34,240 bases of DNA from Solirubrobacteraceae bacterium (lineage in GTDB: Bacteria; Actinomycetota; Thermoleophilia; Solirubrobacterales; Solirubrobacteraceae). Both the position numbers and the translations under genes were made by a program. Under the pieces are notes generated by a model that saw only the letters and a list, made by a program, of their open reading frames with translations, did no database searches and was not told where the DNA came from. Positions 19,533-34,240 of the stretch are shown piece by piece (the first letter of the stretch is position 1; every line of letters starts with the position of its first letter). The stretch is from positions 1 through 34,240 of the forward strand of contig JAWVFY010000309.1 of NCBI GenBank assembly GCA_033855575.1, read 5' to 3'.

Positions 19533-20236
19533 GTGAGCGCAACCTCCAACTCGGTGGCCGCGAATCCGCGCTCGTTCTCCGGACAGGCCAGGCGCACCGG
19601 ATCGTCGGGGGCCGCCGGGCGGACGTCCGCGATGGCCAGCCTGACGGGCCGAGGCCGCCACGCGGGCTCGGGGTCGAGAGGATGTGGCACGGCGCAGGCC
19701 ACGACCAGCGTGTCCATCTCGAAGCGCAGCCGGACGTGCGCACCGGCGGGCGAGCTGTCCGAGACGAACGAGAGCGCACCGTCATCGCCGACCGCGATCC
19801 TGGTGAAGAAGTTGACGTTGGCGACGAGGTCGCGTCGGCCCAGCTCGTGCTTGGCCAGCTCGACGAGAAGCCCCTCACGGGCGCTGCGGCGCCACGCGTT
19901 GTGGCCCTCCTGGTAGCTCATCGTGCCCCAGCGTCCTGCGACGTGACCGGGCGTCGCGTGGCCGGTGATGGTGTCGTGCCAGCCGCACGTGTCCTCGACG
20001 ACCGAGACCAGCACACGCCCCATGTCGGAGTGGAGCGCCACGCCCTGGGTGATCCGCGAGCAGTGCTGCGCCTTGAGCGTGTCGGGCATGCAGTAGCGCT
20101 CGACCGGTTGATCCGCGCGATAGAAGAGCGCAGAGAGGTTGGCGCCCCCTTCGAGGTCGGTCAGCGTCATCGCCGTGCCACGCCGGCAGACCTGTGACCA
20201 GCTGGCGCCCCCCGGGAGGATCGCATCGACGATCAC
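19529..20236 (-). CDS. DUF1989 / urea-carboxylase-associated family protein (second carboxyguanidine deiminase subunit-like paralog)
   Basis: A 235-aa protein starting VIVDAILPGGASWSQV. It contains LTDLEGGANLSALFYRAD and VVEDTCGWHDT, which parallels IVEDTCGRHDT in the paralog. The GTG at 20234-20236 overlaps the stop of the MBL gene (GTGA), and GGAGG lies upstream. Confidence 0.85.
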   Translation of the reverse strand: MIVDAILPGGASWSQVCRRGTAMTLTDLEGGANLSALFYRADQPVERYCMPDTLKAQHCSRITQGVALHSDMGRVLVSVVEDTCGWHDTITGHATPGHVAGRWGTMSYQEGHNAWRRSAREGLLVELAKHELGRRDLVANVNFFTRIAVGDDGALSFVSDSSPAGAHVRLRFEMDTLVVACAVPHPLDPEPAWRPRPVRLAIADVRPAAPDDPVRLACPENERGFAATELEVALT

Positions 20237-21123
20237 GCCGCGACCTCCGATGCCGACCAGTCCACGGGCACGAACACGCTGAAGCCGTCGAACACCGCCT
20301 CGCGCACCTCGCCGCCCACGCAGTCGACCCCCGAACGCAGCGCGACCTCTCCTCCCAGCACGCGCGCGAACGCGTCGGCCTGCAGGGCCAGAAAGGCCGG
20401 TGGGACCTCCGTGCGCATGAAGTGCGAGCAGAACACACGATCCCATCGCTCCGACCGCGCCGCCAGCCCGGACAGCGACGCCTGGAGGGCGCCCAGGTCG
20501 GAGTCGGGCAACTGGGCATAGACCGGTCCGGTGTTGACGGTGTCGCCTCCGAACAGCATGCCCTCGCCCATGAGGTCCAGGCACACGCAGTCCGGCGAGT
20601 GGCCCGGGGTGTGGATGACGTCGAGCCGGCGGCCGCCGAGATCGATCGAGTCACCGTCCTCGATCACGCCCGTCGCCACGAACCCGTCGATGTGCCAGGC
20701 CGAACGGACCTCGGGCGTCAGCCGGCGCACGGTGTGCTGGTCTGCGATCAGGTGGAAATAGCGGTCGTCGAGCTGCTGGTAGTGCCCGAAGCAGTCCTCT
20801 TGGCCCGTCGCGTACTGGAGGTAGGCGTCCAGCAGCTCCGTGGGGACAGCCCGGGCCAGCCCATCCACCCCGAGCGGGTGGATCAGGATCTCCTCGAACT
20901 CGTCGTCGCCACCGATGTGATCGAAGTGGTGGTGCGTGTGGACGACGGTGACCGGCCGGTCCGTCAGAGCCTCGACGACGGGGCGGATCGCAGCAAAGCC
21001 GCAGCCCGTGTCGATCAGCGCAGCTCTGTTCTCACCGGCCACGAGCCAGGAGCAGACGTGCCCAGGCTCGGTGAGCTGCCACACACCCTCTGCGAGCTCC
21101 GTCACGGAGAACCACTCACGCAT
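20233..21123 (-). CDS. Metallo-beta-lactamase-fold hydrolase
   Basis: A 296-aa protein. HTHHHFDHIGG is the HxHxDH zinc motif, and TPGHSPD follows later. The ATG lies 3 nt downstream of the stop of the permease gene. Confidence 0.85.
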   Translation of the reverse strand: MREWFSVTELAEGVWQLTEPGHVCSWLVAGENRAALIDTGCGFAAIRPVVEALTDRPVTVVHTHHHFDHIGGDDEFEEILIHPLGVDGLARAVPTELLDAYLQYATGQEDCFGHYQQLDDRYFHLIADQHTVRRLTPEVRSAWHIDGFVATGVIEDGDSIDLGGRRLDVIHTPGHSPDCVCLDLMGEGMLFGGDTVNTGPVYAQLPDSDLGALQASLSGLAARSERWDRVFCSHFMRTEVPPAFLALQADAFARVLGGEVALRSGVDCVGGEVREAVFDGFSVFVPVDWSASEVAA

Positions 21124-21126
21124 CGA

Positions 21127-22128
21127 TCAGACCGTCCTGATGCGCGGGTCCGCCCACGCCTGCGCGACGTCGACGAGGAAGTTGACGACCACGTAGATCG
21201 TCCCGAGAAGCAGCGTCGCGCCGGTGATCGCCGGGAAGTCGGAGTAGGCGATCGACTGGTCGATGTAGAGGCCCAGTCCCGGCCACGCGAAGATCGACTC
21301 CACCACGACGATGCCTCCAAGCAGAAGCCCGAACTGCAGGCCCGCCATCGTGAGCGCAGGGCCGGCGGCGTTGCGCAGAGCATGGCGCAGCAGCACGGTG
21401 CGCTCCCGAAGGCCCTTCGACCGCGCTGTGCGAACGTAGTCCTCGCGCATCACCGTCGTCAGCGACGTGCTCAGCGTCCGCGCGATGGCCAGCGCGGGCA
21501 GCAGGGCCAGCGTCAGACCCGGCATCAGCAGGTGGCCCAACGCGCTGAAGAACACGTTCGGCTCGACGTGCAGCAGCGAGTCGATCAGCAGGAAGCGCGT
21601 CGGGCCGGTCGGCAGCACGAGGGTGTCGGTCACGCGCCCCGAGGCGGGCAGCAGATGCAGGCCCGAGTAGAGGACGAGGATCAGGATCAGGCCGAACAGG
21701 AAGCTCGGCACCGACGCCCCGCCGATGAGCGCGCGCCGGATCCAGCGGCCCGCCCGCCCGCCGCCCGCCAGCAGGAGCCCCAGCCCGAGACCGATCACGC
21801 CCGCCAGGAAGGCCGCGAACAGCGCCAGCTCCATGGTCGCCGGCGCGAAGGTGCCGAGATCGTCGACCACCGGGTTACGTGTGCGAAGGGAGCTCTGGAG
21901 GTCGCCGTGCAGCAGGCGGCCGGCGAACCGCACGAAGCGCTCGGGAAGCGGCCTGTCGTAGCCGAGCTCGTGCCGCTTGGCCGCGACGACCTTCGGTGAG
22001 GCGCTCGCGCCGACGACGGCTCGGGCCGGGTCGGCCGGCACCACGACCTCCAGCACGAAGGTGATGACCGCCAGCCCCGCCAACACGGCGACGAGGCCCG
22101 CGAACCGGCGTCCGAGGAGACCGGCCAT
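21127..22128 (-). CDS. ABC transporter permease, DppB/OppB-like
   Basis: A 333-aa protein starting MAGLLGRRFAGLVAVLAGLAVITFVL. It has multiple TM segments and the EAA-loop region REDYVRTARSKGL. The ATG at 22126-22128 overlaps the SBP stop by 1 nt (TGATG). Confidence 0.85.
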   Translation of the reverse strand: MAGLLGRRFAGLVAVLAGLAVITFVLEVVVPADPARAVVGASASPKVVAAKRHELGYDRPLPERFVRFAGRLLHGDLQSSLRTRNPVVDDLGTFAPATMELALFAAFLAGVIGLGLGLLLAGGGRAGRWIRRALIGGASVPSFLFGLILILVLYSGLHLLPASGRVTDTLVLPTGPTRFLLIDSLLHVEPNVFFSALGHLLMPGLTLALLPALAIARTLSTSLTTVMREDYVRTARSKGLRERTVLLRHALRNAAGPALTMAGLQFGLLLGGIVVVESIFAWPGLGLYIDQSIAYSDFPAITGATLLLGTIYVVVNFLVDVAQAWADPRIRTV

Positions 22129-23702
22129 CAGCCGGTCCCTCGCAGCGCCGCCAGGTCGACCGTCCAGGGATAGGCAGGCACCGCCTGCACGTTGGTCAGC
22201 TTGTTGCTCAGGACGAAGACGTTCTTGACGTCGCCGAGGAAGAACATCTCGTTGCTGTCGAGCACGCGCTGGCCGACCTGCGAGTACAGCGCGTCGGCCT
22301 TGGCCTTCGGCGCGCTCACTGCCTGGTCGAGCAGCTTGTCGATCGTCGGGTCCTTGAAGCCCAGGAAGTCCAGCCCTCCCGAGGAGTAGAAGAGGATCCG
22401 CGCCCACGTGTCGGGGTCGGCGGCGTCGGGGGTGTTGGTGACGAGCAGGAGGTCCGGGGCGTGCGCCAGATCCTTGACGTACCCGTAGACCTGCGGCAGC
22501 TGGACCTCCTTGAGCGTGACGTCGTAGCCCGCGGCCGAGAGCTGGGCCTGCAGCAGCTCGCTGGCTCTGCGCTGGACACCTGACTCGTCGGCGGTGTAGG
22601 CCAGCGTGATCGACCTCGTCTTCGCCTTGGCGCTGATCGCCTTCGCCGCCGCGGTGTTGGGCTTGTAGGGCAGGCCCGGCTGACTCGGCAGCAGGCCGGG
22701 CGGATAGGCGCCGGTGGACGCGGTGGCGGTGCCCGCGTACGCCTGCGAGACGAGCTGGCCGACGTCGAAGGTCGATCGCAGACCCGCGCGGATGGCCGGA
22801 TCCGAGAACGGAGCCCGGTTGGTGTTGACGTAGAGCAGCAGCCGCAGGTAGGAGCTCTCGCGCTTGACGGTCAGGTTGGACGGCAGCGAGCTGAGCTCCG
22901 AGGCGGGGAACGAGTGCAGGATCGCGTCAAGGTCGCCGTTCTGCAGCTCGAGGCGCTGCGTCCCGATGTCCGGCGTGATCTTGAAGATGATCTTCTGGAA
23001 GTAGGGAGCCGTTCCCCAGTAGCCGGGTGCGCGTGTCAGCACGTACTGGCGTCCACGGTCGAACGCCGTGATCTCATAGGGGCCGGTGCCGTCCTCGTGG
23101 GTGCGCAGCCAGGTCTGCGCGTGGTCTGATCCCGCGTGCTGCGTGATCGCGCCGGGCCCGATGATCTTGGGGCCCCAGCTCGAGGCCATGTAGGCCAGGA
23201 ACGGGTTGACCGGATGCTTGAGCTTGATGACGAGCTCGAGCGGCTTCGGCGTCAGCATGCTCTTGACCGGCTCAAGCATGTAGGAGGGTGCCTGGGCGAC
23301 CGCGAGACGTCGCTCGAAGCTTGCCTTGACCGCTGTCGACGTCAGCTTGCTGCCGTCATGGAAGCGAACACCGGGTCGCAGGTGGAACGTGTAGGTCAGC
23401 CGGTCAGGCGAGACCGTCCAGGACGCGGCCAGGCTGCCGACGATCCTCGACGAGCCCGGCGCGTACTTCAGCAGGCCGTCGTAGCTGTTGAGGATCACCG
23501 AGTTGCCCTCGATGTCGTAGAAGACGTCGGGATCGGGCACCGACATGTCGGCGAGATACGGGATGCGCAGCACGGCGTTGCTCGCGCCGGACGCGCCGCC
23601 CGCCGCTGTTCCGCCGACGCTGCTGGACGTGCTCTTTGCGCCGCACCCTGCTGCGAGCAGGGCCGCCAGGGTGAGCACGGCCAGGATCGAACGGTGCCTC
23701 AT
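22128..23702 (-). CDS. ABC transporter substrate-binding lipoprotein, family 5 (peptide/nickel/opine type)
   Basis: A 524-aa protein starting MRHRSILAVLTLAALLAAGCGA, a lipoprotein-type signal. Family-5 SBP blocks are SLAASWTVSPDRLTYTFHLRPGVRFHDGSKLT and GTGPYEI. The ATG at 23700-23702 overlaps the upstream stop (ATGA), and AAGGAA lies upstream. Confidence 0.9.
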   Translation of the reverse strand: MRHRSILAVLTLAALLAAGCGAKSTSSSVGGTAAGGASGASNAVLRIPYLADMSVPDPDVFYDIEGNSVILNSYDGLLKYAPGSSRIVGSLAASWTVSPDRLTYTFHLRPGVRFHDGSKLTSTAVKASFERRLAVAQAPSYMLEPVKSMLTPKPLELVIKLKHPVNPFLAYMASSWGPKIIGPGAITQHAGSDHAQTWLRTHEDGTGPYEITAFDRGRQYVLTRAPGYWGTAPYFQKIIFKITPDIGTQRLELQNGDLDAILHSFPASELSSLPSNLTVKRESSYLRLLLYVNTNRAPFSDPAIRAGLRSTFDVGQLVSQAYAGTATASTGAYPPGLLPSQPGLPYKPNTAAAKAISAKAKTRSITLAYTADESGVQRRASELLQAQLSAAGYDVTLKEVQLPQVYGYVKDLAHAPDLLLVTNTPDAADPDTWARILFYSSGGLDFLGFKDPTIDKLLDQAVSAPKAKADALYSQVGQRVLDSNEMFFLGDVKNVFVLSNKLTNVQAVPAYPWTVDLAALRGTG

Positions 23703-24601
23703 CGGGTGTTCCTTTGGTCGAGGTGACGGTTGATGGCGTCGCCCATGACGTTCGCGGTGAACGCAAGCAGCGCGACGGCCACGGCAGGTGCGAGCGGGAC
23801 CCACGGATGGCCGAAGAGGTAGTCCAGGCCCCGCGCGCTCATCGCCCCGAGCTCAGGTGCCGGCGCCGGCGCGCCCAGGCCGATGAACGACAGGGCGGCC
23901 AGCGCAAGGATCAGGTTGCCGACGTCCAGGGACATCGTGACGACCACCGGCGCGACGGCGCCCGGCAGGAGGTGGCGCAGGACCAGCCGTCTGCGGCTGA
24001 CGCCCGCCAGCCGCGCCGCCTCGGCGTGCGGCCGGACGGCGAGCGCGCGGACCTCGGCGCGAACGATCCGCGCGTACCAGGGCCACCACACGATGCTCAG
24101 CGCGAGCAATGTGTGAAACAGGCTGGGGCCCATCGAGGCCACGATGGCGATCGCCAAGACCGGCGCCGGCAGCGAGATGAACAGGTCGGTCAAGCGCATC
24201 AGGACCGTGTCGACGATGCCGCCCAGCGCGCCGGCCAGCGCTCCCACGAGCGCACCGAACGCCGCGCCGAGCGAGATGACGCCCAGCGCGGCGAGCCACG
24301 AGGTCCGCAGGCCGATCAGCACCCTCGACAGCACGTCGCGGCCGATCTCGTCGGTCCCCAGGAGGTTGTGCACCGAGAGCCCGTGCAACGGACCGGCAGC
24401 CGTGATCTGCAGCGCACTGTCAGGCGCCAGCAGCGGCGCGATCAAGATCACCAGCGTCAGCACCGCGACGGGTAGAAGGGCGCGGCGCAGGCCCGCGGGG
24501 CTCACGCTGCCGGACGGCGTGCCGCGACGCCGCACGAACGCGCCGACGGCTCCACGCGCCACGGCCGGTGCCGCGTCAGACGTCGTGGGCGCCATCGCCA
24601 T
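23699..24601 (-). CDS. ABC transporter permease, DppC/OppC-like
   Basis: A 300-aa protein starting MAMAPTTSD. It contains LLGTDEIGRDVLSRVLIG, typical of OppC/DppC, and has several TM segments. The ATG at 24599-24601 overlaps the ATPase stop by 1 nt. Confidence 0.85.
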   Translation of the reverse strand: MAMAPTTSDAAPAVARGAVGAFVRRRGTPSGSVSPAGLRRALLPVAVLTLVILIAPLLAPDSALQITAAGPLHGLSVHNLLGTDEIGRDVLSRVLIGLRTSWLAALGVISLGAAFGALVGALAGALGGIVDTVLMRLTDLFISLPAPVLAIAIVASMGPSLFHTLLALSIVWWPWYARIVRAEVRALAVRPHAEAARLAGVSRRRLVLRHLLPGAVAPVVVTMSLDVGNLILALAALSFIGLGAPAPAPELGAMSARGLDYLFGHPWVPLAPAVAVALLAFTANVMGDAINRHLDQRNTR

Positions 24602-26409
24602 CAGGCCGCCTCCACCCCGGGGACCGCGGCAAGGAGCTCGCACGTGTACGGATGGGTGGGCTGCGCGAAGATCTGCTCGACGGTGCCGCGCTCGACCACA
24701 CGGCCGCGCCGCATGACGATCACGTCATCGGCGACCGCCCGCGCGGCCGCCAGGTCATGGGTGACGAAGAGCAGGGCGATGCCGAGCGTCGCGCGCAGGT
24801 GGCAGAGCAGGTTGAGGACCTGGGCCGCCAGCGACACGTCCAGGGCCGACACCGGCTCGTCGCACGCCAGAAGAGCCGGGGGCACCGCGATCGCCCGGGC
24901 GATCGCGGCCCGCTGGCGCTGGCCGCCCGAGAGCCGCCGCGGCATCATCGCGGCCTGCTCCGCCGACAGGCCGACGGCCTCGAAGGCCGCGGCGACGCGT
25001 GCAGGTCGCTCCGTGGCCGGGACGCCGACCGCGGCGAGCCTCTCGGCAACCTGCTCTCCCACCGACATCCATGGTGTCAACGATGCGCCGGCGTCTTGGA
25101 AGATCATCTGCGGCGAGGCGCCGGGACCGAGCCGCATCGAGCCCGCTGTCGGATCCAGCAACCCCACGATCATCCGCAGCAGCGTGCTCTTGCCCGAGCC
25201 GGACTCGCCGACGACTGCCACCGACCCGCCGGGCGGGACGACGAGGTCGATCGCGTCGACGGCGCGCAGCGGCTCTGACGCTGATGCGAACGGATGGCGC
25301 CGGGGACGGGCGAACTCCCGTACGAGTCCCGTGACGGTCAGGGCGGGCTCGAGAGCCGTGCCCGGGATGGATGCGGGAGCCTCCTGAGCCGGCGGGCGAA
25401 GGAGCATGAGGTCGGGCCGCCGCATGTGCGGTCCGCCCTCGGGCCAGCGTGAGAGGACTCCGGGGTGGTGGCACTCGTCGCGCCGGGCGGCCGCGAGGTG
25501 GACGGGCACCGCCAGTGCGCAGCTGGCGTCGCTGGCTGGGCAGCGCGGCGCGAACGCGCAGCCCGCCATCGGCCGGCGCGGGTCGGGAGGCCGACCGGGC
25601 AACGTGGGCAGGTCACCGCCGGCGACCGTGCCGTGCAGGCTCGGGCGGCTGGCCAGCAGCCCGACGGTGTATGGGTGGCGCGCGCCGGCCAGGACCTCGG
25701 GGGTGGTCCCGGTCTCGACGATCCGGCCTGCGTAGGCGACCGCGATCCGGTCACAGATGCGCGCGGCGACACCCAGGTCGTGGGTGACCAGCAGCAGCGA
25801 CACGCCGCGATCGCGCGCGGCGGCCGCGAGCAGGTCGAGCACCTTGGCCTGGACCGTGACGTCGAGCGCGGTCGTCGGCTCGTCGGCGATGATCAGCCGC
25901 GGAGCCCGGGCCAGTGCCATGGCGATCATCACGCGCTGGCGCAGGCCGCCCGACAGCTCGTGCGGATAGGCCCGCGCCTTGACGTGCGGCTCCGGGATGC
26001 CGGTCGATCCAAGCAGCTCGCAGACCGCCTGGGTCGACAGTCCGTCGCCTGCCTCGTCCACCTGTCGCCCCACGCGCATGGTCGGGTTCAGCGAAGCCAT
26101 CGGATCCTGGAAGACCGCGCCGACGTAGGAGCCCCGTCGGGCGCGGCGAGCGTCCTCACCGGCGGACACCATGTCCTCGCCATCGAGACGGACCTCGCCC
26201 CGGATGGTCGGAGCGGGATCGCGCGGGAGGAGGCCGAGCGCGGTCAGTCCGAGCACGCTCTTGCCAGATCCCGACTCGCCGACCAGGCCGAGGACCTCCC
26301 CCTCGGCGATCGCCAACGTCGCTCCACGCAGGGCGTGGACGTCGCCGTCACGAGCAGCGAACGTGACGTGCAGGTCGCGCACGTCGAGAACGGGGACCGG
26401 CCGAGTCAA
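24601..26409 (-). CDS. Fused double-NBD ABC ATPase (DppD-DppF type)
   Basis: A 602-aa protein. It has two Walker A motifs (both GESGSGKS), two signature motifs (LSGGLRQR and LSGGQRQR) and two HPYT oligopeptide-type C-terminal motifs. The TTG start at 26407-26409 overlaps the upstream TGA (TTGA). Confidence 0.9.
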   Translation of the reverse strand: MTRPVPVLDVRDLHVTFAARDGDVHALRGATLAIAEGEVLGLVGESGSGKSVLGLTALGLLPRDPAPTIRGEVRLDGEDMVSAGEDARRARRGSYVGAVFQDPMASLNPTMRVGRQVDEAGDGLSTQAVCELLGSTGIPEPHVKARAYPHELSGGLRQRVMIAMALARAPRLIIADEPTTALDVTVQAKVLDLLAAAARDRGVSLLLVTHDLGVAARICDRIAVAYAGRIVETGTTPEVLAGARHPYTVGLLASRPSLHGTVAGGDLPTLPGRPPDPRRPMAGCAFAPRCPASDASCALAVPVHLAAARRDECHHPGVLSRWPEGGPHMRRPDLMLLRPPAQEAPASIPGTALEPALTVTGLVREFARPRRHPFASASEPLRAVDAIDLVVPPGGSVAVVGESGSGKSTLLRMIVGLLDPTAGSMRLGPGASPQMIFQDAGASLTPWMSVGEQVAERLAAVGVPATERPARVAAAFEAVGLSAEQAAMMPRRLSGGQRQRAAIARAIAVPPALLACDEPVSALDVSLAAQVLNLLCHLRATLGIALLFVTHDLAAARAVADDVIVMRRGRVVERGTVEQIFAQPTHPYTCELLAAVPGVEAA

Positions 26410-27011
26410 ACGCCGACCCTGGCGGGCTCTGCGGCGCCGAGGGCACTGAGCAGCTCGGCGGTCGTGACGAGGCAGTCGCGCTGCAGGTAGCGCATCGCCC
26501 GCAGAGACGCCTCGTGCGCCTCCGGCGAGGAGCCGCCGGTGGCGTCAGTGACGACCTTGCAGTGGTAGTCGTGTTGATGGGCGTCGGCGAACGTGTAGTG
26601 GACGCAGACGTCGGTCAGACCGCCGAGAAGCACGACGGTCTCGATGCCCAGCGACTTCAGGACGAGCTCGAGCTCGGTGGCGAAGAACGCCGAATAGCGG
26701 CGCTTGCGGATGTGGTACTCGTCGGCCCGCGGCTCGAGTCCGCTCGCGAGCTCGGTCAGCTCGTCGCCTTCGAGGCAGTGCACGGTCTCGCTGCCGTCGA
26801 GCTCGCGGCCGAAGTCGAGCAGCGTGCGCTTGTGGACCTCCTGAATGAAGATCGGCGGGACCGCCGCCTCACGGGCCGCCGCCAGGATCTGGCGTGCTCG
26901 ATCGACCCGCTCGGGCCCACCGGGCATCAGCGGGATGCCGCACTCGACATCGAGCTCGGCGGACCGCTGGACATCCACCAGGATGAGAGCCGTGTTGCCG
27001 ATCAGTTCCAA
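26406..27011 (-). CDS. Isochorismatase-like cysteine hydrolase (amidohydrolase)
   Basis: A 201-aa protein. Candidates for the D-K-C triad are ALILVDVQ (Asp), HIRKRRYSAF (Lys) and GGLTDVCVHYT (Cys). The TTG start at 27009-27011 lies 6 nt after AAGGAG (27018-27023). It is the first gene after the riboswitch. Confidence 0.85.
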   Translation of the reverse strand: MELIGNTALILVDVQRSAELDVECGIPLMPGGPERVDRARQILAAAREAAVPPIFIQEVHKRTLLDFGRELDGSETVHCLEGDELTELASGLEPRADEYHIRKRRYSAFFATELELVLKSLGIETVVLLGGLTDVCVHYTFADAHQHDYHCKVVTDATGGSSPEAHEASLRAMRYLQRDCLVTTAELLSALGAAEPARVGV

Positions 27012-27023
27012 GCCAAGCTCCTT

Positions 27024-27063
27024 AGAAATCAGAAAAGCCCGGCAGACGTGATGTCTCCCGGGC
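27024..27063 (-). terminator. Intrinsic terminator acting as the riboswitch expression platform
   Basis: The RNA reads GCCCGG-GAGAC-AUCAC-GUCUG-CCGGGC followed by UUUUCUGAUUUCU. The 5' arm (GCCCGG, + strand 27058-27063) is part of the conserved AAAAGCCCGGGAGA 3' end of the aptamer, so the aptamer and the terminator are mutually exclusive. Confidence 0.7.
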
Positions 27064-27165
27064 TTTTATCCCTCCGTGTCAGCGCGGCTATGTCGATGCC
27101 GGCCTGCCCTCTCGGACCAGACCCGCCGGTTGCCCGGCGGCGGAACCCTAGGGCGAACGTCACGA
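27054..27165 (-). promoter_or_regulatory. Guanidine-I (ykkC/yxkD) riboswitch aptamer
   Basis: The minus-strand RNA is CGUUCGCC-CUAGGGUUCCG-CCGCCGG-GCAA-CCGGCGG-GUCU-GGUCCGAGAG-GGCAGGCCGGCAUCGACAUAGCCGCGCUG-ACACGGAGGGAUAAAAGCCCGGGAGA. All three hallmark conserved blocks of the ykkC class are present in the correct order: CUAGGGUUCCG at 27141-27151, GGUCCGAGAG at 27109-27118, and ACACGGAGGGAUAAAAGCCCGGGAGA at 27054-27079. There is also a GNRA-capped P1a hairpin. Confidence 0.88.
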
Positions 27166-27189
27166 TAAGAAGCCCGCGCTCGCAGACCC

Positions 27190-27205
27190 TTGGACCCGGG
27201 TCCAA
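27190..27205. promoter_or_regulatory. Perfect 16-bp palindrome TTGGACCCGGGTCCAA upstream of the riboswitch (possible operator or promoter element)
   Basis: The palindrome was read directly. A related imperfect site, TTGGACCGGCTGGCCAA, lies at 27222-27238. Both are in the putative promoter region, about 25-75 nt upstream of the aptamer. No function has been shown. Confidence 0.3.
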
Positions 27206-27388
27206 ATTCGGCGCGTCATCTTTGGACCGGCTGGCCAACGAGCCTCGAGGAGGCCGTGTCTAGCTTGCGCGTGTGTTCTACGTCCGTACCGTGGCCGCCG
27301 CGTTGGGACACGAGAAGCAGCACGCTCCTGCACCGGCGGTGTGGCGAATCTCCGCGCGCATCGACAGCGTCGTGCGCCGACTAGCTCA

Positions 27389-27497
27389 TCACGTTTCGAG
27401 CGGGCGGGAGATGAAGTAGCCCTCGGCGAGGTCGCAGTTGAGCGTTCTCGTCGAGGAGCGCCGTCTCGGTGACCTCGACGGTGAGGCTCTGCCCCAT
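27389..27497 (-). pseudogene. Relic of an EAL-domain (c-di-GMP phosphodiesterase) gene with an internal deletion
   Basis: One minus-strand frame reads MGQSLTVEVTETALLDENAQL, an E-x-TE block typical of EAL domains. A second frame then reads directly on as ..LNCDLAEGYFISRPLET*, like the C-terminal GCDxxQGYxxSRP block of EAL domains. The roughly 150 aa normally separating these blocks are absent. Confidence 0.45.
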
Positions 27498-27518
27498 GGC
27501 GCCACCGCGCAGAGGTCT

Positions 27519-28928
27519 CTACCGCGGCGGCAGCGGCTCGAGCCGCGGGTAGTAGGTCGGCGTGGGACCGAACCGCAGGGGCGGCTGCACGTGACAGGGC
27601 GGCCCCGCGCCGGGGACGGGCGTCGGGTGGTTGACGTTGGCGCAGTCGGAGGCCGCGATCCCGTCCTTGCCGACCGCATCGAGCACGCCCGGCGCCGGAT
27701 AGGCGTTGTGGCGGTTGCTCCCCGGCCGCTGGGTCGCGCTCCCCACGTTGCTCTCGTTGGAGAACGCCAGCAACGTGCGCAGGTAGTGGATCATCGTCCC
27801 GTCGGCCAGCTGCGTCTTGGCCTGATAGACCGCGCCGAGATTGGCCAACACCGTCGTCATCGTCGGTCCGTAGAGCTGGGTCAGCTCGACCGCGGGGGTC
27901 ACCTGGTCGGCAGCGGTCTCGAGTTGATCGATGAACGGGACGGTGGCTGACACGAGCCGCGTGGCGGCGGGCAGCGCGCGCTCGGAGAGGTCGATGACGG
28001 GACCGATCTCCCGCATGAGGCCACGGATCGCCGGCGACAGGGCGATCAGCTCCGACAGGACCGGCCGCAACAGCGGGGCGGCCGGCCTCAGCGCGGCCAG
28101 CGTCGGCGCGGCGTGGGCGCCGGTCGTGTCGAGCACGCGCAGCGTCGAGCGCAGCTGGTCGAGGAACGGCGGGAGCGCCCGGACGGTGGCGGTCAGCTCG
28201 CGGTTGCGCGCGGCGGTGCTGGAGAGCACGCGGTCTCCGGCACCGACGAGCGTCGCCAGGTCGGCACGGCGGTCGCCCAGCGTCTGGAGCACGACGCCGG
28301 TATCGCGGATCACCCGCCGGAACGAGCTGCCCTGGCGGTCGACGATCGAGGCGACGTCAGCGAACGAGCCGACCGCCGGGTCCAGGTTGCCGAGCGCCGA
28401 GTTGAGATCGGTGCCGCGGCCCTGCAGCGCAGCGGACAGGCCCTGCAGCATCCGGCGCAGGTTGCGCTGCGTGGGGGCGTCGAACGTGCCGAGGACCGTG
28501 TCGAGCTGCTGCGTGCCGGCGATCCGGCTGTCGGCCAGCCGGCCGCCCTCGGGCACCTTCCGAGCGCTCGCGCTTCCGGGCGTCAGCGCCACGAACGTCT
28601 CCCCCAGCAGCGTCTTCTGCCGCAGGATCGCCCGGGCGTCGGACGACAGCGGTGCGTACCTGGCGTCGAGCTCGATGGTCGCGTCGGCGCGCAGGCCTCG
28701 CCGGCGCACGGCGACCACCCGCCCGACGTTGACGCCCGCCATCCGCACGTCGGCCCGGGCCACGAGCTCGCTGGCCTGCGTGAAGCTGGCGTGGAAGCGA
28801 TAGCCCCTGGGGTACAGGGGAAGGCTTCCCCCGAACTGCGTCCAGACGTAGATGATCAGACCCACGCAGGCGAGCACGAAGAGCCCCGCGACGGCCATGG
28901 CGGAGCGATGGGGAGCCTGGGTGATCAT
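27519..28928 (-). CDS. Mce-family (MlaD-domain) protein, last of the mce array
   Basis: A 469-aa protein. It has an N-terminal TM segment (MAVAGLFVLACVGLIIYV) and the Mce domain YRFHASFTQASELVARADVRMAGVNVGRVVAV. A long helical region and a Pro-rich tail follow. Confidence 0.85.
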   Translation of the reverse strand: MITQAPHRSAMAVAGLFVLACVGLIIYVWTQFGGSLPLYPRGYRFHASFTQASELVARADVRMAGVNVGRVVAVRRRGLRADATIELDARYAPLSSDARAILRQKTLLGETFVALTPGSASARKVPEGGRLADSRIAGTQQLDTVLGTFDAPTQRNLRRMLQGLSAALQGRGTDLNSALGNLDPAVGSFADVASIVDRQGSSFRRVIRDTGVVLQTLGDRRADLATLVGAGDRVLSSTAARNRELTATVRALPPFLDQLRSTLRVLDTTGAHAAPTLAALRPAAPLLRPVLSELIALSPAIRGLMREIGPVIDLSERALPAATRLVSATVPFIDQLETAADQVTPAVELTQLYGPTMTTVLANLGAVYQAKTQLADGTMIHYLRTLLAFSNESNVGSATQRPGSNRHNAYPAPGVLDAVGKDGIAASDCANVNHPTPVPGAGPPCHVQPPLRFGPTPTYYPRLEPLPPR

Positions 28929-28935
28929 GCGGCGC

Positions 28936-30219
28936 TCATCCCTGCCCCCCCGCGCACGGACCGGTGGGTCCGAGCGTGACCTTCAGGAGGTCGGCCAGCG
29001 CCGGCTGGGCGGTCAGGCTCGTGCACGAGAGCAGCGTCAGACCGCGCAGGACGGCGCCGTTGGGATCCTCGGTGGACACGACCGAGTTGGCGTTGTGGCC
29101 GAACCACGCCAGCCAGTACAGGAACGAGTGCGCGCGCCCCGGTGGCTGGTAGGCCAGCTCGTTGACGAACGCCTCGATGACCTTGAACGCCGTGGTCTGC
29201 GGCCCCGCCGCACGGCTGAGTGCGCTCGTGGTGGCGGGCAGCGACTTGGCGAGCGGCAGGATCGTGTCGACGAACGGCTTGACGTCGGCCACCGGCAGCA
29301 GCCCACCACCCTGCAACAGCGGCCGGCTTCCCCGCAGCGTCGGCGCCAGGCGCCGCGCGGTCGGCAGCAGCGCGTCCAGCGTCGGCGCCAGCAGGTCGGC
29401 GAGCTGGGTCGTGTGGCCGAGGGTGCTGCGGAGGGTCCGCAGCGTCGGCGGCAGCTGGGCGACCGAGCTGCGCAGGGCGCCGTCCTGCTGGGCCAGGGCG
29501 CCGAGCATCGCGTTGCTGGCACCGACCACGGTGGCGATCTCGCGGTCCTTGGCGCCGGCGGCGCGGCTGAGCAGCGAGAGGTTGGTCACCAGCCGCTTGA
29601 CCTGGCGCCGGCGTGCGGCGAGCACGTCGCCGACATCGCGCACCTGGGTCATGGTCGGGCCCAGCGAGCGAAACAGCGCGTTGAGGTCGGGACCGCGGCC
29701 CCGGGTGCCGCGGTCGAGGCCCGACAGCAACGTGACGATGTACGTCCGCGTGTCGGCGTCCAGCGCGTTGAGCAGGTCGTCGGCGTCGATCGGCGTGGTG
29801 GTCTGGCCGACGGGAATGGTCGCGCCGTCGCGCAGGGGCGGCGCGGGCCTGCCGCCCGGCACGAGGTTGACCTGCATGTCCTTCAGCGGTGAGCTCGGGA
29901 CGAGGACGGCACGGGCGTTGGCGTAGAGCCGCGGCAGCTTCTGGGGGTCGATCTTCAGCTCCAGGACGCCCTGGCCGTTCTCGAGCTTCGCGCCGCCGAT
30001 CTGGCCGACCTGGACGCCGGAGACGTTGACCGGCTCCCCCAGCCCGGGTGCCACGCCGGTGACGCCGGCGAACGCCGCGTAGACCGTGTAGGAGGACGCG
30101 AAGGGCGACTGCAGCCGTTCCTGGGACAGGATGTAGAAGGCAGAGGCCAGGCCGGCGACGACGACCGCGGCGAGCAGCAGGATCCTTCCGACGCTGCGCT
30201 GGATCTGGCGGCGGAACAT
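28936..30219 (-). CDS. Mce-family (MlaD-domain) protein
   Basis: A 427-aa protein. It has the TM segment RILLLAAVVVAGLASAFYIL and the Mce domain YTVYAAFAGVTGVAPGLGEPVNVSGVQVGQIGG. Its ATG directly abuts the TAG of the upstream gene (TAGATG). Confidence 0.85.
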   Translation of the reverse strand: MFRRQIQRSVGRILLLAAVVVAGLASAFYILSQERLQSPFASSYTVYAAFAGVTGVAPGLGEPVNVSGVQVGQIGGAKLENGQGVLELKIDPQKLPRLYANARAVLVPSSPLKDMQVNLVPGGRPAPPLRDGATIPVGQTTTPIDADDLLNALDADTRTYIVTLLSGLDRGTRGRGPDLNALFRSLGPTMTQVRDVGDVLAARRRQVKRLVTNLSLLSRAAGAKDREIATVVGASNAMLGALAQQDGALRSSVAQLPPTLRTLRSTLGHTTQLADLLAPTLDALLPTARRLAPTLRGSRPLLQGGGLLPVADVKPFVDTILPLAKSLPATTSALSRAAGPQTTAFKVIEAFVNELAYQPPGRAHSFLYWLAWFGHNANSVVSTEDPNGAVLRGLTLLSCTSLTAQPALADLLKVTLGPTGPCAGGQG

Positions 30220-31629
30220 CTAGCGCCCTGCCCCCTGGGTCGAGAGGCCGGCCGAGCCGGTGTCGGCCTGCAGGCTGGTGACGGGCTGCGCGCTGCAGGG
30301 CTGGGCGGGCTGGAAGTCCGAGGGCTGGAGGCGGCCGTTCCACACCGGCCGGGCCCCGCCGATCGGCGAGCCTCCCGGCTGCGCTCCGGTCAGGGCGCCG
30401 GCGCCGGACAGCGAGCCGGCGCTCAGCACCTGAGGTCCGGTACCCGACTGGTAGCGCAGCGCGTAGCCGTTGCCGTCGAAGTTCTGGGCTGCGCTGGCGA
30501 TGCCGGGCAGGAGGTGGGCGAGGTCCTGCCAGGCGGGCCGTCCGGTCGACAGCGCGCCGTCGGGGACCTCCTGGGTGAGAACGGGGACGACGTGAGACAC
30601 CACGCAGTCGGTGATCGGCTTGGCCGTGGACACCGTCTGGCTCAGGCGGATCAGCAGCCGGGGGAAGCTGACCAGGGCGGCGCGCGTGGCGCTGACGAGT
30701 CGGCTGCGCTCCGCGGGCGCGACGAGGCTGCCGAACTCCTGCACCCCGGCGAGGAGCCGGCGCAGCAGCGGCGGCGCGTCGACCAGCCCGGGGTCCAGCA
30801 CGCGGGCGAACCGCGAGAGTGCGGGCAGCGCCCGGTCGACGGCCGTGAGCGCGGGCGGCGCGGCGCGCATCACGCGCGCCAGCTCGACCAGCCCCGCGCC
30901 GAGGGCACCGTCCCGGGCGGACAGCGCGGTCGCTGTCGTGTCGAGGTTGGTCACCAGGCCCGCCAGCGCCGTCTCGTCGGCGGCCAGCGCCCCGGTGACC
31001 CGCGAGGTGCCGGCGATCAGGCCGGAGAGGTCGTGCTCGTGGGCCCCGCGCAGGGCCTGGGCGACGATCGCGATGTCGCGCAGCGCCGGCGAGAGCGGCC
31101 GGCTCGCGCCCTGCAGGCCGCGAGCCCCGCCGTGCGCCAGCGCCTGCGCCGAGGTGTGCAGGACGTTGCGCAGGCTCGCGCGCGTCGGGCGCTGGAAGGT
31201 CGACAGGAGCTGGTAGAGCTGGACCGCGGACTGGGTCTGCGGCAGGGGGATCGTGTCGCCGTCCTTCATCGGCGGCGCGCTCGGACTGCCGGGCGCGAGC
31301 GCGACGTAGTAGCCACCTTCGACGAACAGCCGAGGCCGCACCCGGAGCGTCGCGTCGCGATGGATCGGCAGCGCGCGCTCGTCGAGCTCCATGTTGACCT
31401 TCGTGGTGGCGCCGGGGCCCGACTCGACCGAGGTGACCTTGCCGACGTTGATCCCCGCGATGCGGACCGGCGAGAGGACCCGCAGCGCGTTGCTGTCGGT
31501 CATCAGGGCGTGGATGCGGAAGCCGTGGACGAGCGGCGGGCCGTTGTTGAACGCGTAGTAGGAGACCCCGGCGATCACGGCGATCGTGATGACTGCGGCC
31601 GCGATGGGGTGCCGGGCCCGCCGCCTCAT
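30220..31629 (-). CDS. Mce-family (MlaD-domain) protein
   Basis: A 469-aa protein starting MRRRARHPIAAAVITIAVIAGVSYY. The Mce domain is FRIHALMTDSNALRVLSPVRIAGINVGKVTSV. The ATG at 31627-31629 overlaps the upstream stop (ATGA). The ORF-track extension to 31893 is discarded. Confidence 0.85.
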   Translation of the reverse strand: MRRRARHPIAAAVITIAVIAGVSYYAFNNGPPLVHGFRIHALMTDSNALRVLSPVRIAGINVGKVTSVESGPGATTKVNMELDERALPIHRDATLRVRPRLFVEGGYYVALAPGSPSAPPMKDGDTIPLPQTQSAVQLYQLLSTFQRPTRASLRNVLHTSAQALAHGGARGLQGASRPLSPALRDIAIVAQALRGAHEHDLSGLIAGTSRVTGALAADETALAGLVTNLDTTATALSARDGALGAGLVELARVMRAAPPALTAVDRALPALSRFARVLDPGLVDAPPLLRRLLAGVQEFGSLVAPAERSRLVSATRAALVSFPRLLIRLSQTVSTAKPITDCVVSHVVPVLTQEVPDGALSTGRPAWQDLAHLLPGIASAAQNFDGNGYALRYQSGTGPQVLSAGSLSGAGALTGAQPGGSPIGGARPVWNGRLQPSDFQPAQPCSAQPVTSLQADTGSAGLSTQGAGR

Positions 31630-33038
31630 CGCCCCGCCCCGATCGGCGGCCCGGTTCGCGCGGTGTGGCGGCCCGCGGTCGCCCGGGGGTGGCCGATGTC
31701 CTGACCGGGCAGGTAGCGCTCGTTGCCCGCCTCGCAGGCCGTCGCGTCCTCGCGGGGGTACGGGTCGAAGTGGAGGTCCGGAGCGGCCGTGGCGGACTGC
31801 GGGCTCTGCGAGGAGCTCAGGATCAGGGCGGTCGTCAGCCAGGATCCCGCGGCGTCGCCGTCGCTGAGCGCCGAGGACTGGTTTCGCACCCACAGCCCGA
31901 TGACGTTGCAGGCGAGCTGGGCCTGCGCGGCCGAGTGCAGGATCCCACCGAGGCCGAGGAACAGGGAGGTCGAGAAGGTCGGCAGGTCCTGGCCGTGCAG
32001 CGCAGCGATCGCGCCGATCGAAGCCGGGTCGCGAGCGAAGCGATCGACGGCCGAGAACGCAGCCGCCAGCGGGCGCGACAGCCGCGGGACCCGCCGAAGG
32101 ATCGGCGTCGTGTCGAGCAGCACGCTGTCGAGGTTGCGCGCGGCGGCGGGGAGCAGCCGCGCGCCCGGGAGAAGCCCTCGGCTGACCGCCGCGGCGTCCG
32201 CGAGGACCGGGCGCAGGTCGCGCATCGTCGTGGTGGCGACCGACTCGGTCGGCGGGAGGCGTTCGATCGTGTCGCCGAGGGACGCGCCCGTGGCCTGAAG
32301 CGCCTGCAGGGTCGTCGTCGCGTGGTCGACCAGGGCGTTGAGCTGGCCAGCGAGCGGTGCGAGCGCGCTGGCCGCCGATGCCGCGCCGTCGATGAACCCG
32401 GCCAGCCCCGTGGCGGGATCGGCGAGCGTCTCGAGGATCCGCTGGAGCGGCGGCAGGAGGCGCCGCGTCGAGGCGATCGCCGCGTTGATCGCCGTGCCGC
32501 GACCGGCGAACGTGTCACCGAGCTCGCCGATGGTGGAGCGCAACCCGGTGGCGGTCTTGCCCCCGAAGGCCCGGAAGGCCTGGTCGAGGTCGACGATCGG
32601 GACGTTGTCGGCGAGCGGCAGCACCCCACCGTCGGGCACCATCCGGCGCGACCGGCCGGGGGTCAGCTCGAGGTACTTGCCGCCCAGCAGCGAGGAGAGG
32701 CGGATCTTCGTCGCCGTGTCGACGGGGAGCGCCTCTGCCCCCAGGTCCGTCAGGGCCAGGCCGAGCCGGGCGAACGGCGGGCGGCTGCCGCGCGCGGGCA
32801 TGGCGGTGATGCTGAGGACCTGCCCCACGCGCGCGCCTCCCACGCGGACGTCGGCGTTCTTGGTCATCTCGGCGGCGTTGGGGACGTCCACCGAGAGCCG
32901 GTAGGTCGGCTGGAACGGCAGCCCGTTCTGCGCGTGGTAGGAGATCCAGACGATGCCGGCCAGCGCGAGGATGATGAGCGTGCCCGCCAGCTCCGGATAG
33001 CGGCGCATGACCTTGAAGCGGGCGCGGCCGGAGCTCAT
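31626..33038 (-). CDS. Mce-family (MlaD-domain) protein
   Basis: A 470-aa protein starting MSSGRARFKVMRRYPELAGTLIILALAGIVWISY. The Mce domain is YRLSVDVPNAAEMTKNADVRVGGARVGQVLSI. The ATG at 33036-33038 overlaps the upstream stop (ATGA), with ATG 33008 as an alternative. The ORF-track extension to 34034 is Arg-rich nonsense in the same frame. Confidence 0.85.
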   Translation of the reverse strand: MSSGRARFKVMRRYPELAGTLIILALAGIVWISYHAQNGLPFQPTYRLSVDVPNAAEMTKNADVRVGGARVGQVLSITAMPARGSRPPFARLGLALTDLGAEALPVDTATKIRLSSLLGGKYLELTPGRSRRMVPDGGVLPLADNVPIVDLDQAFRAFGGKTATGLRSTIGELGDTFAGRGTAINAAIASTRRLLPPLQRILETLADPATGLAGFIDGAASAASALAPLAGQLNALVDHATTTLQALQATGASLGDTIERLPPTESVATTTMRDLRPVLADAAAVSRGLLPGARLLPAAARNLDSVLLDTTPILRRVPRLSRPLAAAFSAVDRFARDPASIGAIAALHGQDLPTFSTSLFLGLGGILHSAAQAQLACNVIGLWVRNQSSALSDGDAAGSWLTTALILSSSQSPQSATAAPDLHFDPYPREDATACEAGNERYLPGQDIGHPRATAGRHTARTGPPIGAGR

Positions 33039-34240
33039 GGCCGCAGGAGGTAGTCGAGGACCGTGCGGGATGCCCGGGCGCCGCCGGCCGCGCCGTCCGC
33101 GCCGTAGTTCGCGCTGCAGCCGGCCACCGGTGCCGTGGCGTAGGCGGTGCAGGCGGGCTCGACGAGGATGTGGGCGGGCAGGATGTGCGAGACCGAGTCG
33201 AAGCGCGATGTCGCCGAGCCGACGTAGTAGAAGAGCGAGAGCAGGTTCTCGACGAAGCCCTTGTCGCGCAGGTCGGCGTAGAGCCGGCCGCTGAGCTCGG
33301 AGGCGGGCAGGGAGCGCACCGCGTAGTCCCGCAGCGTCGCGACCACGGGCGCGAGGCGTCGCGAGGCGGCCGTTCCGCGTCGCAGCGCCGAACCGAGTCC
33401 GCGCGTCGCCGCGGGCGCCGCGCGCGCGAACGCCGGGATATCGGCGCTCACGCGCCCCAGGTCGGGTGCCGCGGCACGCAGCGAGCGCAGCAGGGGCGTG
33501 CCGGCGGCCGCCACGGTGTCGAGGGCGCGCAGCGACCCCCGGGTCTCGCGCAGCGTCGCAGGCAGGCGCGCCACGGTCTGCGAGAGCGCGTCGCGGTGCT
33601 GTGCGATCGCCGTCGTGACGCCCGCGGCGGACTCGATGAACTGCTGCGCGCGGCCGCGCCGCGGCGCCAGGCGCCCGAGGAGGCGGTCGGACGCCTCGAC
33701 CATGGTGGCGAGCTGGCTGCGCTGCCTTCCGACGAGCTCCAGCGTCCGCCGGGCCGCCAGCAGCGTCGGGTTCGCCCGGCGGATGATCGCGTTGATGTCC
33801 TCGCCACGACCGGCGGTGGCGATCCCCAGCTCGTTGACGATCACGCTGAAGCGATCGCGGGTCGGCGTGTCGAAGATGTTGAAGAGGTCGGTGAGGTTGA
33901 CCGGCTCGGTGGTGTGGCTCACCACCACCGTCGGCGTCCCGTCGCGACCGGGGGGCAGCACCTGGGCGTCCTGTGTCCCGGGGTCGCACTCGACGTAGTT
34001 CTCCGCGATCAGGCCCTCGGGTCGGATCGTGCACGTGGCGTCGGCATGGAACGGGGCGAACCGGGGATCGACGCTCAGCTGGATCCGGGCCTGGTAGCGG
34101 GCGGTCAGCCTGACGTCGTCGATCCTGCCCACGCGGGCGCCGGCGATCTTGACGAGCTGGCCGGCGACGAGCCCGCGCGCGTCGTCGAAGATCGCGTTGA
34201 CCCGGTAGGGCGAGTCGCTCGCCGCGGCGCCGCCCCGGCC
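33035..34240 (-). CDS. Mce-family (MlaD-domain) protein, 5'-truncated by the window edge
   Basis: The frame stays open from 34132 to the window end. It reads GRGGAAASDSPYRVNAIFDDARGLVAGQLVKIAGARVGRIDDVRL, the core of the Mce domain. The GTG at 34132 used by the ORF track is therefore internal, and the N-terminus lies outside the window. Confidence 0.8.
   Translation of the reverse strand, partial: GRGGAAASDSPYRVNAIFDDARGLVAGQLVKIAGARVGRIDDVRLTARYQARIQLSVDPRFAPFHADATCTIRPEGLIAENYVECDPGTQDAQVLPPGRDGTPTVVVSHTTEPVNLTDLFNIFDTPTRDRFSVIVNELGIATAGRGEDINAIIRRANPTLLAARRTLELVGRQRSQLATMVEASDRLLGRLAPRRGRAQQFIESAAGVTTAIAQHRDALSQTVARLPATLRETRGSLRALDTVAAAGTPLLRSLRAAAPDLGRVSADIPAFARAAPAATRGLGSALRRGTAASRRLAPVVATLRDYAVRSLPASELSGRLYADLRDKGFVENLLSLFYYVGSATSRFDSVSHILPAHILVEPACTAYATAPVAGCSANYGADGAAGGARASRTVLDYLLRP

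Follow-up and report, generated by a model that had tools for sequence, protein, structure and literature searches.

What signal governs the ten genes that run along the minus strand from position 27011 of contig JAWVFY010000309.1, and how is that signal converted into gene expression? The contig belongs to a Solirubrobacteraceae bacterium (GenBank assembly GCA_033855575.1), and the whole stretch analysed, positions 1 to 34,240, is called the window below. The element in question is an RNA leader, encoded on the minus strand at 27024-27165, immediately ahead of the first of these genes. An original prediction, made from the letters and their open reading frames, had read it as a Guanidine-I (ykkC) riboswitch with a terminator expression platform. 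The evidence gathered here supports that reading with a probability of roughly 0.85: the segment 27053-27162 (minus strand) encodes a guanidine-I subtype 1 aptamer, which would form part of a terminator-based transcriptional ON switch that heads a ten-gene operon.

As an RNA, the riboswitch is a standard, ordinary member of the Guanidine-I family, of which about 1,500 members are known (PMC6031431), and it brings no fresh insight into how RNAs sense ligands. It is useful as a label, marking a conserved operon of soil Thermoleophilia as one that would respond to free guanidine.

Identity and architecture of the aptamer

The family assignment is clear. A cmscan search of the whole window against Rfam returns Guanidine-I (RF00442) as the sole match at gathering thresholds. 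The match covers 27053-27162 on the minus strand and spans model positions 1-107 of 107; with 78 bits (E 1.9e-12) it exceeds the gathering score of 63. When 26700-27500 is scanned permissively, with E values up to 10, only two noise matches are added, both elsewhere, and no family competes for the region. A custom covariance model built from orthologues (see below) scores 111.5 bits on the same aptamer. A full-length match above the curated threshold, free of competitors at E<=10, thus bears out the family named in the original prediction.

The aptamer comprises P1, a conserved internal loop, P1b, P2 and P3. Strand reading and motif location recover every sequence element that had been listed, each in its place on the minus strand. 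The first conserved block, CUAGGGUUCCG (27151-27141), provides the 5' side of P1 and the internal loop L1, and is unchanged in 27 aligned aptamers. It is followed by the P1b hairpin CCGCCGG-GCAA-CCGGCGG (arms at 27140-27134 and 27129-27123; 27123-27140 overall) and by the second block, GGUCCGAGAG (27118-27109), which holds the G/A dinucleotide bulge. P2 is a variable hairpin (27080-27101) that appears in the minimum free energy (MFE) fold as a 7-bp stem with one bulge. The third block, ACACGGAGGGAUAAAAGCCCGGGAGA (27079-27054), contains P3 and the ligand-pocket nucleotides.

Ligand-pocket nucleotides and subtype

A match to the Guanidine-I model does not by itself settle the ligand, because ykkC RNAs of subtype 2, which sense ppGpp, PRPP and other ligands, share the fold and most conserved nucleotides while the pocket nucleotides are changed (PMC6031431, PMC5912903). 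The alternative that follows is a subtype 2 variant sensing ppGpp, PRPP or another nucleotide-like ligand in place of guanidine. The discriminating positions are described in the literature. A46 of S. acidophilus, equivalent to A38 of D. dadantii, is a pyrimidine in subtype 2 (PMC6031431, PMC5340920), and sorting ykkC RNAs on this position alone separates their gene contexts (PMC6031431). In subtype 2 a pyrimidine likewise takes the place of G67, and positions 84 and 85 need not be G (PMC5340920).

The D. dadantii numbering was transferred to the present RNA through the pairs and triples C6-G39, U7-A36, G9-C34, G10-C33 and the G37/A38 bulge, with C64-G84, G67-A86, C66-G87 and A75-A78 as further anchors (PMC5340920). 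The A38/A46 equivalent is A at 27110, within GGUCCGAG-A-G, and is the subtype-1 marker; its neighbour, the G37 equivalent, is G at 27111. The equivalents of G67 and G68 are G at 27075 and G at 27074, those of A75-A78 form the A-minor tract AAAA at 27067-27064, and those of G84 and G85 are G at 27058 and G at 27057. The RNA thus has every ligand-pocket nucleotide known from the D. dadantii crystal structure, and on this mapping the pocket is the subtype 1 (guanidine) signature.

The subtype check attached to the original prediction consequently falls on the guanidine side. Neither the marker (A) nor the G67 equivalent (G) is a pyrimidine, both the G84 and G85 equivalents are G, and the region has no match to another Rfam family at E<=10. 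The neighbouring genes point the same way: they encode CgdA/B-like proteins, an allophanate hydrolase and a carboxyltransferase, not enzymes of purine or amino-acid biosynthesis. Marker nucleotides and gene context together led to the rejection of a subtype 2 identity, which can be regarded as highly improbable. Guanidine would then be the ligand.

Conservation and covariation among relatives

The protein encoded by gene 1, an isochorismatase-like cysteine hydrolase, gives access to related loci. It has thousands of homologues, and the closest named ones come from Solirubrobacterales/Solirubrobacteraceae metagenome-assembled genomes. An identical protein is found on a JGI metagenome contig (L081) with the same Mce neighbours. 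Eighty genomic loci encoding relatives of gene 1 were searched with a motif pattern, then with a covariance model built from 27 aptamers. A guanidine-I aptamer lies within 10 kb in 35 of these fetched loci, and it stands directly upstream of the hydrolase gene in 22 Solirubrobacterales-type and two Chloroflexota loci. When seven loci were rechecked with Rfam, six scored above the gathering threshold (67.6-88.8 bits); the seventh, of Mycobacterium type, had no match above it.

The alignment of the distinct aptamers (35 sequences, model-guided) preserves the proposed structure: 98.4% of cells are standard pairs. Compensatory double changes occur at eight pairs, three in P1 and five in P1b, the latter being all five P1b pairs. 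The covariation score is higher than in any of 500 shuffles, and sliding the 3' partners by 1-3 columns lowers pairing to 22-55%. This alignment was fitted to the model, which favours structure; an independent MAFFT/RNAalifold analysis recovers the same compensatory pairs. The three G-C pairs of P3 are invariant in the 35 sequences, so that P3 neither supports nor opposes the structure. P2 is too variable to align (MAFFT also failed on it), and the statement on covariation covers the helices other than P2.

The placement of the aptamer varies between lineages. In L027, L037, L042 and L065 it is found in front of the ATPase gene. In a series of Mycobacterium-type loci (L043, L046, L047, L051-L053, L055, L061-L064, L067, L068, L076 and L080), the hydrolase gene lies inside the same Opp-type importer, in the order ATPase, permease, permease, hydrolase, binding protein, and no guanidine-I aptamer occurs within 10 kb. 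Its absence from many Mycobacterium-type loci implies that the hydrolase-importer module is under riboswitch control in some lineages only.

The terminator and the proposed switch

The expression platform is built from the aptamer itself. The predicted terminator hairpin, AAAAGCCCGG-G-AGAC / AUCAC / GUCU-G-CCGGGCUUUU (27033-27067, minus strand), uses the 3' half of the aptamer as its 5' arm. This arm, 27054-27067, contains the AAAA A-minor tract, the 3' strand of P3 and the equivalents of G83-G87, so the hairpin and P3 are mutually exclusive. Within the hairpin, GCCCGG (27063-27058) is complementary to CCGGGC (27042-27037), 15 nucleotides (nt) downstream. The U-rich tail UUUUCUGAUUUCU (27036-27024) comes next, and behind it the Shine-Dalgarno sequence AAGGAG (27023-27018), 6 nt 5' of the TTG start codon (27011-27009). 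The same region is marked as joining an alternative terminator in the D. dadantii riboswitch (Fig. 1 legend, PMC5340920), and in published descriptions guanidine-I switches work by weakening an intrinsic terminator (PMC12508155).

Folding calculations agree with this arrangement. For the 47-nt segment 27070-27024 the folding energy is -24.4 kcal/mol. Its 200 shuffled versions reach -9.75 +/- 2.34 kcal/mol (z -6.26), and none of them is as stable. The MFE fold of the full leader contains the hairpin together with P1, P1b and P2, but not P3. In the transcript 27156-27024, the terminator state reaches -65.2 kcal/mol and the state with P3 enforced -54.1, a gap of 11 kcal/mol. Because the terminator state is the more stable of the two, the default is predicted to be termination (default-OFF). 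It follows that the ligand-bound tertiary fold, which lies outside the energy model, must capture the 3' segment co-transcriptionally.

Conservation extends to the platform. An equivalent hairpin with a U-rich tail is present in 22/22 Solirubrobacterales-type leaders, with energies of -16.6 to -28.3 kcal/mol; across these orthologous hairpins the loops and 3' arms vary while pairing is kept. The terminator platform of the original prediction is thereby strengthened on two sides, by the overlap of the hairpin with the 3' strand of P3 and the pocket, and by its retention in all 22 leaders.

The proposed mechanism can be described as a choice between two folds of the nascent RNA. Without ligand, 27054-27067 (the AAAA tract, the 3' P3 strand and the pocket Gs) would pair with its downstream complement and form the intrinsic terminator 27033-27067, with its tail to 27024. 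Transcription would then stop ahead of the Shine-Dalgarno sequence and the TTG at 27011. Guanidinium binding to the nascent aptamer would stabilise P3 as well as the contact by which P3 docks on the internal loop of P1. P3, once stabilised, would withhold the 5' arm of the terminator and RNA polymerase would read through. Read-through would in turn allow expression of functions for the uptake of guanidine, or of a related guanidino/ureido compound, and its breakdown to ammonia.

Weighing the evidence

Several observations weigh against this interpretation of the leader. The U tract is interrupted (UUUUCUGAUUUCU), which is the main weakness of the terminator assignment, and a simple terminator pattern scan does not list the leader hairpin. 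P2 contains two non-canonical pairs in the Rfam alignment. A sigma-70 consensus scan found no promoter, and the transcription start is placed by inference only. The operon is also without a canonical full-length guanidine carboxylase, which makes the link between ligand and cargo less direct than in textbook cases.

The failure of the pattern scan has an identifiable cause. Its rules permit no internal mismatch, accept loops of 3-8 nt and require >=5 U in the 8 positions after the stem. The leader hairpin is missed because its G-G stem mismatch, or the 15-nt loop, is disallowed and too few U residues remain once AAAA and UUUU are paired.

The imperfect U tract and the missing terminator call do give some ground for a different view: the aptamer could be real but its control exerted otherwise than by intrinsic termination, with the hairpin acting as an RNA-stability or Rho-related element, or with control at the level of translation. 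Intrinsic terminators in high-G+C Actinomycetota often depart from the E. coli model, a point that can be counted in favour of such control. So can the existence of other platforms in this gene family, since two Chloroflexota leaders (L050 and L070) are without the hairpin. Against it stand the strength of the hairpin (z -6.3), an overlap with the aptamer that precisely reproduces the arrangement of characterised guanidine-I switches, and the U-rich sequence that is kept 3' of the hairpin in all 22 close orthologues despite changes in loops and arms. The folds also leave the Shine-Dalgarno sequence unpaired in the terminator state, so translational masking by sequestration of the ribosome site is not predicted. 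Control by means other than termination is accordingly quite unlikely here, and an intrinsic terminator is the preferred platform.

The two Chloroflexota loci form a case of their own. In both (L050:6763-6925 and L070:5453-5620) the aptamer precedes the hydrolase gene and the terminator hairpin is absent. The 3' tail of the aptamer, GGGAGAUC, is complementary to GAUCUCC, located right after the start codon. This complementarity suggests a different platform, possibly a translational one.

Promoter and upstream region

A candidate -10 hexamer of the TAnnnT type, TATCGT (27162-27167, minus strand), ends 10 nt before CUAGGG, and a similar T/A-rich hexamer occurs near the same position in most of the 22 orthologous leaders. 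From this candidate, transcription is inferred to start at about the first nucleotides of P1.

Further upstream of the leader lies a perfect 16-bp palindrome, TTGGACCCGGGTCCAA (27190-27205). It has a single exact match in the window, where 0.06 would be expected by chance. An imperfect copy, TTGGCCAGCCGGTCCAA, is found ~30 nt further upstream, at about 27220-27240, and half-site blocks resembling TTGGmC / GTCCAA recur, semi-conserved, in the 22 orthologous leaders with equal spacing to the aptamer. The palindrome is a candidate operator, at which a regulatory protein may add a second layer of control to that of the riboswitch, or may represent promoter elements; it may form no part of the riboswitch.

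Directly upstream on the same strand, 27519-34034 is occupied by a run of genes with MlaD/Mce domains (an mce-type lipid uptake cluster).

Organization of the operon

The riboswitch is followed by ten genes that extend from 27011 to 15293 on the minus strand, over 11.7 kb. According to Pfam, NCBIfam and start-codon analysis, the nine junctions between them consist of overlaps of 1-4 nt or a 3-nt gap. This layout indicates that the ten genes are a translationally coupled unit headed by the riboswitch, and the same gene order follows the riboswitch in ~15 related genomes. Svornostia abyssi J379 (NZ_CP088295) and Paraconexibacter antarcticus 02-257 (NZ_CP098502) are two cultured relatives that have this leader and operon.

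Gene 1 (26406-27011) encodes the isochorismatase-like cysteine hydrolase of 201 residues (Pfam PF00857, 141 bits), and the TTG at 27011 opens its 201-codon frame. Third-position G+C periodicity over 26400-27000 tracks this frame, which marks the frame from 27011 as a real gene. A coding explanation of the leader, through a plus-strand open reading frame at 26514-27263 that overlaps the element, was considered and rejected: such periodicity is absent over 27000-27300.

Genes 2 to 5 encode an ABC transporter. Gene 2 (24601-26409) specifies a fused double ATPase of the oligopeptide/nickel type (two ABC_tran domains and oligo_HPY), and a 4-nt overlap joins its start to the stop of gene 1. The two permeases are encoded by gene 3 (23699-24601; BPD_transp_1), whose ATG overlaps the preceding stop, and by gene 5 (21127-22128; BPD_transp_1 and BPD_transp_1_N). 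Between them, gene 4 (22128-23702) encodes a family-5 solute-binding lipoprotein (SBP_bac_5, 220 bits). It scores below the NCBIfam cut-offs for NikA, Opp and Dpp, and its N-terminus, ...LAALLAAGC, carries a lipobox. The presence of this predicted binding protein indicates that the transporter is an importer.

Gene 6 (20233-21123) encodes a metallo-beta-lactamase-fold (MBL) hydrolase (PF00753, 73 bits); of the Solirubrobacterales-type operons, only this one and that of L020 (Paraconexibacter) contain it. Genes 7 and 8 encode two DUF1989 proteins. Gene 7 (19529-20236) is of the UAAP1 type (TIGR03425, 289.8 bits against a cut-off of 205.95) and gene 8 (18888-19532) of the UAAP2 type (TIGR03424, 303.6 bits against 284.7). 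Both families are now known as carboxyguanidine deiminase subunits, and the two genes make up a CgdA/CgdB-like pair. Gene 9 (17014-18891) encodes a 625-residue homologue of urea/guanidine carboxylase with carboxyltransferase domains only (CT_A_B and CT_C_D). Gene 10 (15293-17017), the last of the tightly packed unit, encodes an allophanate hydrolase (TIGR02713, 680 bits against a cut-off of 511; Amidase and AH_C domains).

A further reading frame on the same strand (13694-15259) starts 33 nt after the stop of the allophanate hydrolase gene. It encodes a 521-residue multi-pass membrane protein with strong coding periodicity and has no Pfam match.

How far the control of the riboswitch reaches is a separate question. 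It might be limited to the first gene or genes, with the distal genes for the CgdA/B-like proteins, the carboxyltransferase and the allophanate hydrolase transcribed from internal promoters. In a unit of this length (11.7 kb) such promoters are conceivable from the sequence; in enterobacteria and Vreelandella, moreover, two riboswitches share control of the pathway, one of the guanidine-I class and an internal one of the guanidine-II class (PMC12186494, PMC12508155). The window offers little that resembles this division. Rfam cmscan detects no second riboswitch in it, and hence no internal guanidine-II element, and the pattern scan finds no terminator-like site between the operon genes. All nine junctions are overlaps or a 3-nt gap, and the riboswitch-headed gene order is kept in ~15 genomes. 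Restriction of control to the promoter-proximal genes is thus unlikely. The claim in the original prediction that guanidine would induce the whole downstream operon fits the layout, which lends it good support.

A non-canonical set of enzymes

The riboswitch operon carries three proteins that the described guanidine carboxylase pathway does not explain: the always-first isochorismatase-like hydrolase, the family-5 importer and a carboxyltransferase without biotin domains. The last of these departs from the canonical enzyme. The alignment of gene 9 with K. lactis urea carboxylase (3va7) is confined to the carboxyltransferase domain, residues 477-1123. Neither a biotin carboxylase (BC) nor a BCCP domain turns up in the 34-kb window when every long open reading frame is scanned with Pfam. 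A tblastn search with the BC and BCCP domains of the full-length L075 enzyme returns only noise in the window and nothing in the Solirubrobacterales loci; the same search recovers BC/BCCP in proteobacterial and some other loci.

The residue at the Asp/Asn specificity position (K. lactis 1330) separates the two kinds of protein as well. Guanidine carboxylases carry Asp at the positions equivalent to K. lactis 1330 and 1584, and Asn at 1330 is characteristic of urea carboxylases (PMC11410670, PMC12186494). Gene 9 has Met at the 1330 equivalent and Asp at the 1584 equivalent. The other carboxyltransferase-only homologues examined (from Solirubrobacterales, one Frankiales and one Mycobacteriales locus) likewise have Met at 1330, with Thr in one of them, and the full-length enzymes in other loci all have Asp there. 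Acyl-CoA carboxylases of Actinomycetota provide the basis for the idea of a shared subunit: by analogy, an actinobacterial BC-BCCP subunit could serve the carboxyltransferase of gene 9 in trans.

The hydrolase encoded by gene 1 belongs to the isochorismatase-like superfamily, which includes guanylurea, biuret and triuret hydrolases (PMC9800807). It falls below every NCBIfam equivalog cut-off (BiuH, 62.5 against 370 bits). Its candidate residues D13, K103 and C136 are invariant in homologues. It shares 31% identity over 184 residues with the validated pMET-2 guanylurea hydrolase, and orthology with that enzyme was rejected at this level of identity. A plasmid tblastn search for guanylurea hydrolase yielded only generically named cysteine hydrolases. 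No paper linking isochorismatase-like proteins with guanidine riboswitches was found in the one searchable library consulted, a scope narrower than the whole literature.

The genomic company of this hydrolase is also of note. A distant MBL-fold homologue (28-32% identity) is encoded ~0.7 kb downstream of the hydrolase gene in L028, L030, L032, L056, L063, L072 and L075, and the loci with this pair are mostly from Rhodobacterales. In L075 and L032, a guanidine-I riboswitch stands at the head of a canonical operon, which includes a full-length guanidine carboxylase, and the hydrolase and MBL genes are located a short way upstream of this riboswitch. The two genes are thus found repeatedly in association with guanidine catabolism.

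These features can be combined in a tentative scheme, which is possible but rather doubtful. In Solirubrobacterales and some other Actinomycetota, guanidine-I may head a non-canonical pathway in which the importer and the gene 1 hydrolase take up and hydrolyse a guanidino-ureido compound, e.g. guanylurea. The hydrolase could make carboxyguanidine directly from such a substrate, and CgdAB and allophanate hydrolase would process it further, with no need for ATP-dependent carboxylation. Guanidine released by spontaneous decarboxylation would be the inducer. The carboxyltransferase-only protein might borrow BC-BCCP to recapture guanidine, or might have another activity.

If a variant guanidine or guanylurea route of this kind is real, it bears on the soil turnover of guanidine-derived nitrogen and on how "urea carboxylase-like" genes are annotated in Actinomycetota. 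With its somewhat unusual enzyme set, the predicted nitrogen-scavenging operon is a reasonable lead for enzymology.

Comparison with known systems

At the RNA level, the element matches the known Guanidine-I riboswitches (RF00442; D. dadantii and Sulfobacillus acidophilus structures). It has the same three-helix fold with its internal-loop blocks, the same G/A bulge and AAAA A-minor tract, and the same S-turn G residues lining the guanidinium pocket. The terminator over the 3' P3 strand, the ON logic and the association with guanidine-degradation genes are shared too, here as predicted from sequence. No difference in the RNA itself sets it apart. Its P2 is a lineage-specific hairpin with two non-canonical pairs. 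What differs from the known examples is the host, a Solirubrobacterales-like actinomycete of ~70% G+C.

The guanidine carboxylase operons of Pseudomonas syringae, Raoultella, Klebsiella and Vreelandella provide the closest comparison for the gene set. They share with the present operon the riboswitch at the head, the CgdA/B-type DUF1989 pair, the allophanate hydrolase, an ABC importer dependent on a solute-binding protein, and a homologue of the carboxyltransferase domain. In the present operon, however, this homologue is without BC/BCCP and has Met, not Asp, at K. lactis position 1330. The present operon also has an Opp/Nik-type (SBP_bac_5) importer, an isochorismatase-like protein encoded by its first gene and an inserted MBL-fold gene, and it contains no internal guanidine-II riboswitch.

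The gene 1 hydrolase is best compared with GuuH (P. mendocina GU), BB_00025 (pMET-2), BiuH and TrtA. These enzymes and gene 1 are members of one superfamily, and gene 1 retains the candidate Asp-Lys-Cys residues. With the guanylurea hydrolases gene 1 shares the superfamily only, as judged by sequence comparison with the pMET-2 enzyme rather than with GuuH of strain GU. Its setting is also similar: as with GuuH in the guanylurea pathway, the hydrolase gene is clustered with genes for CgdAB and allophanate hydrolase.

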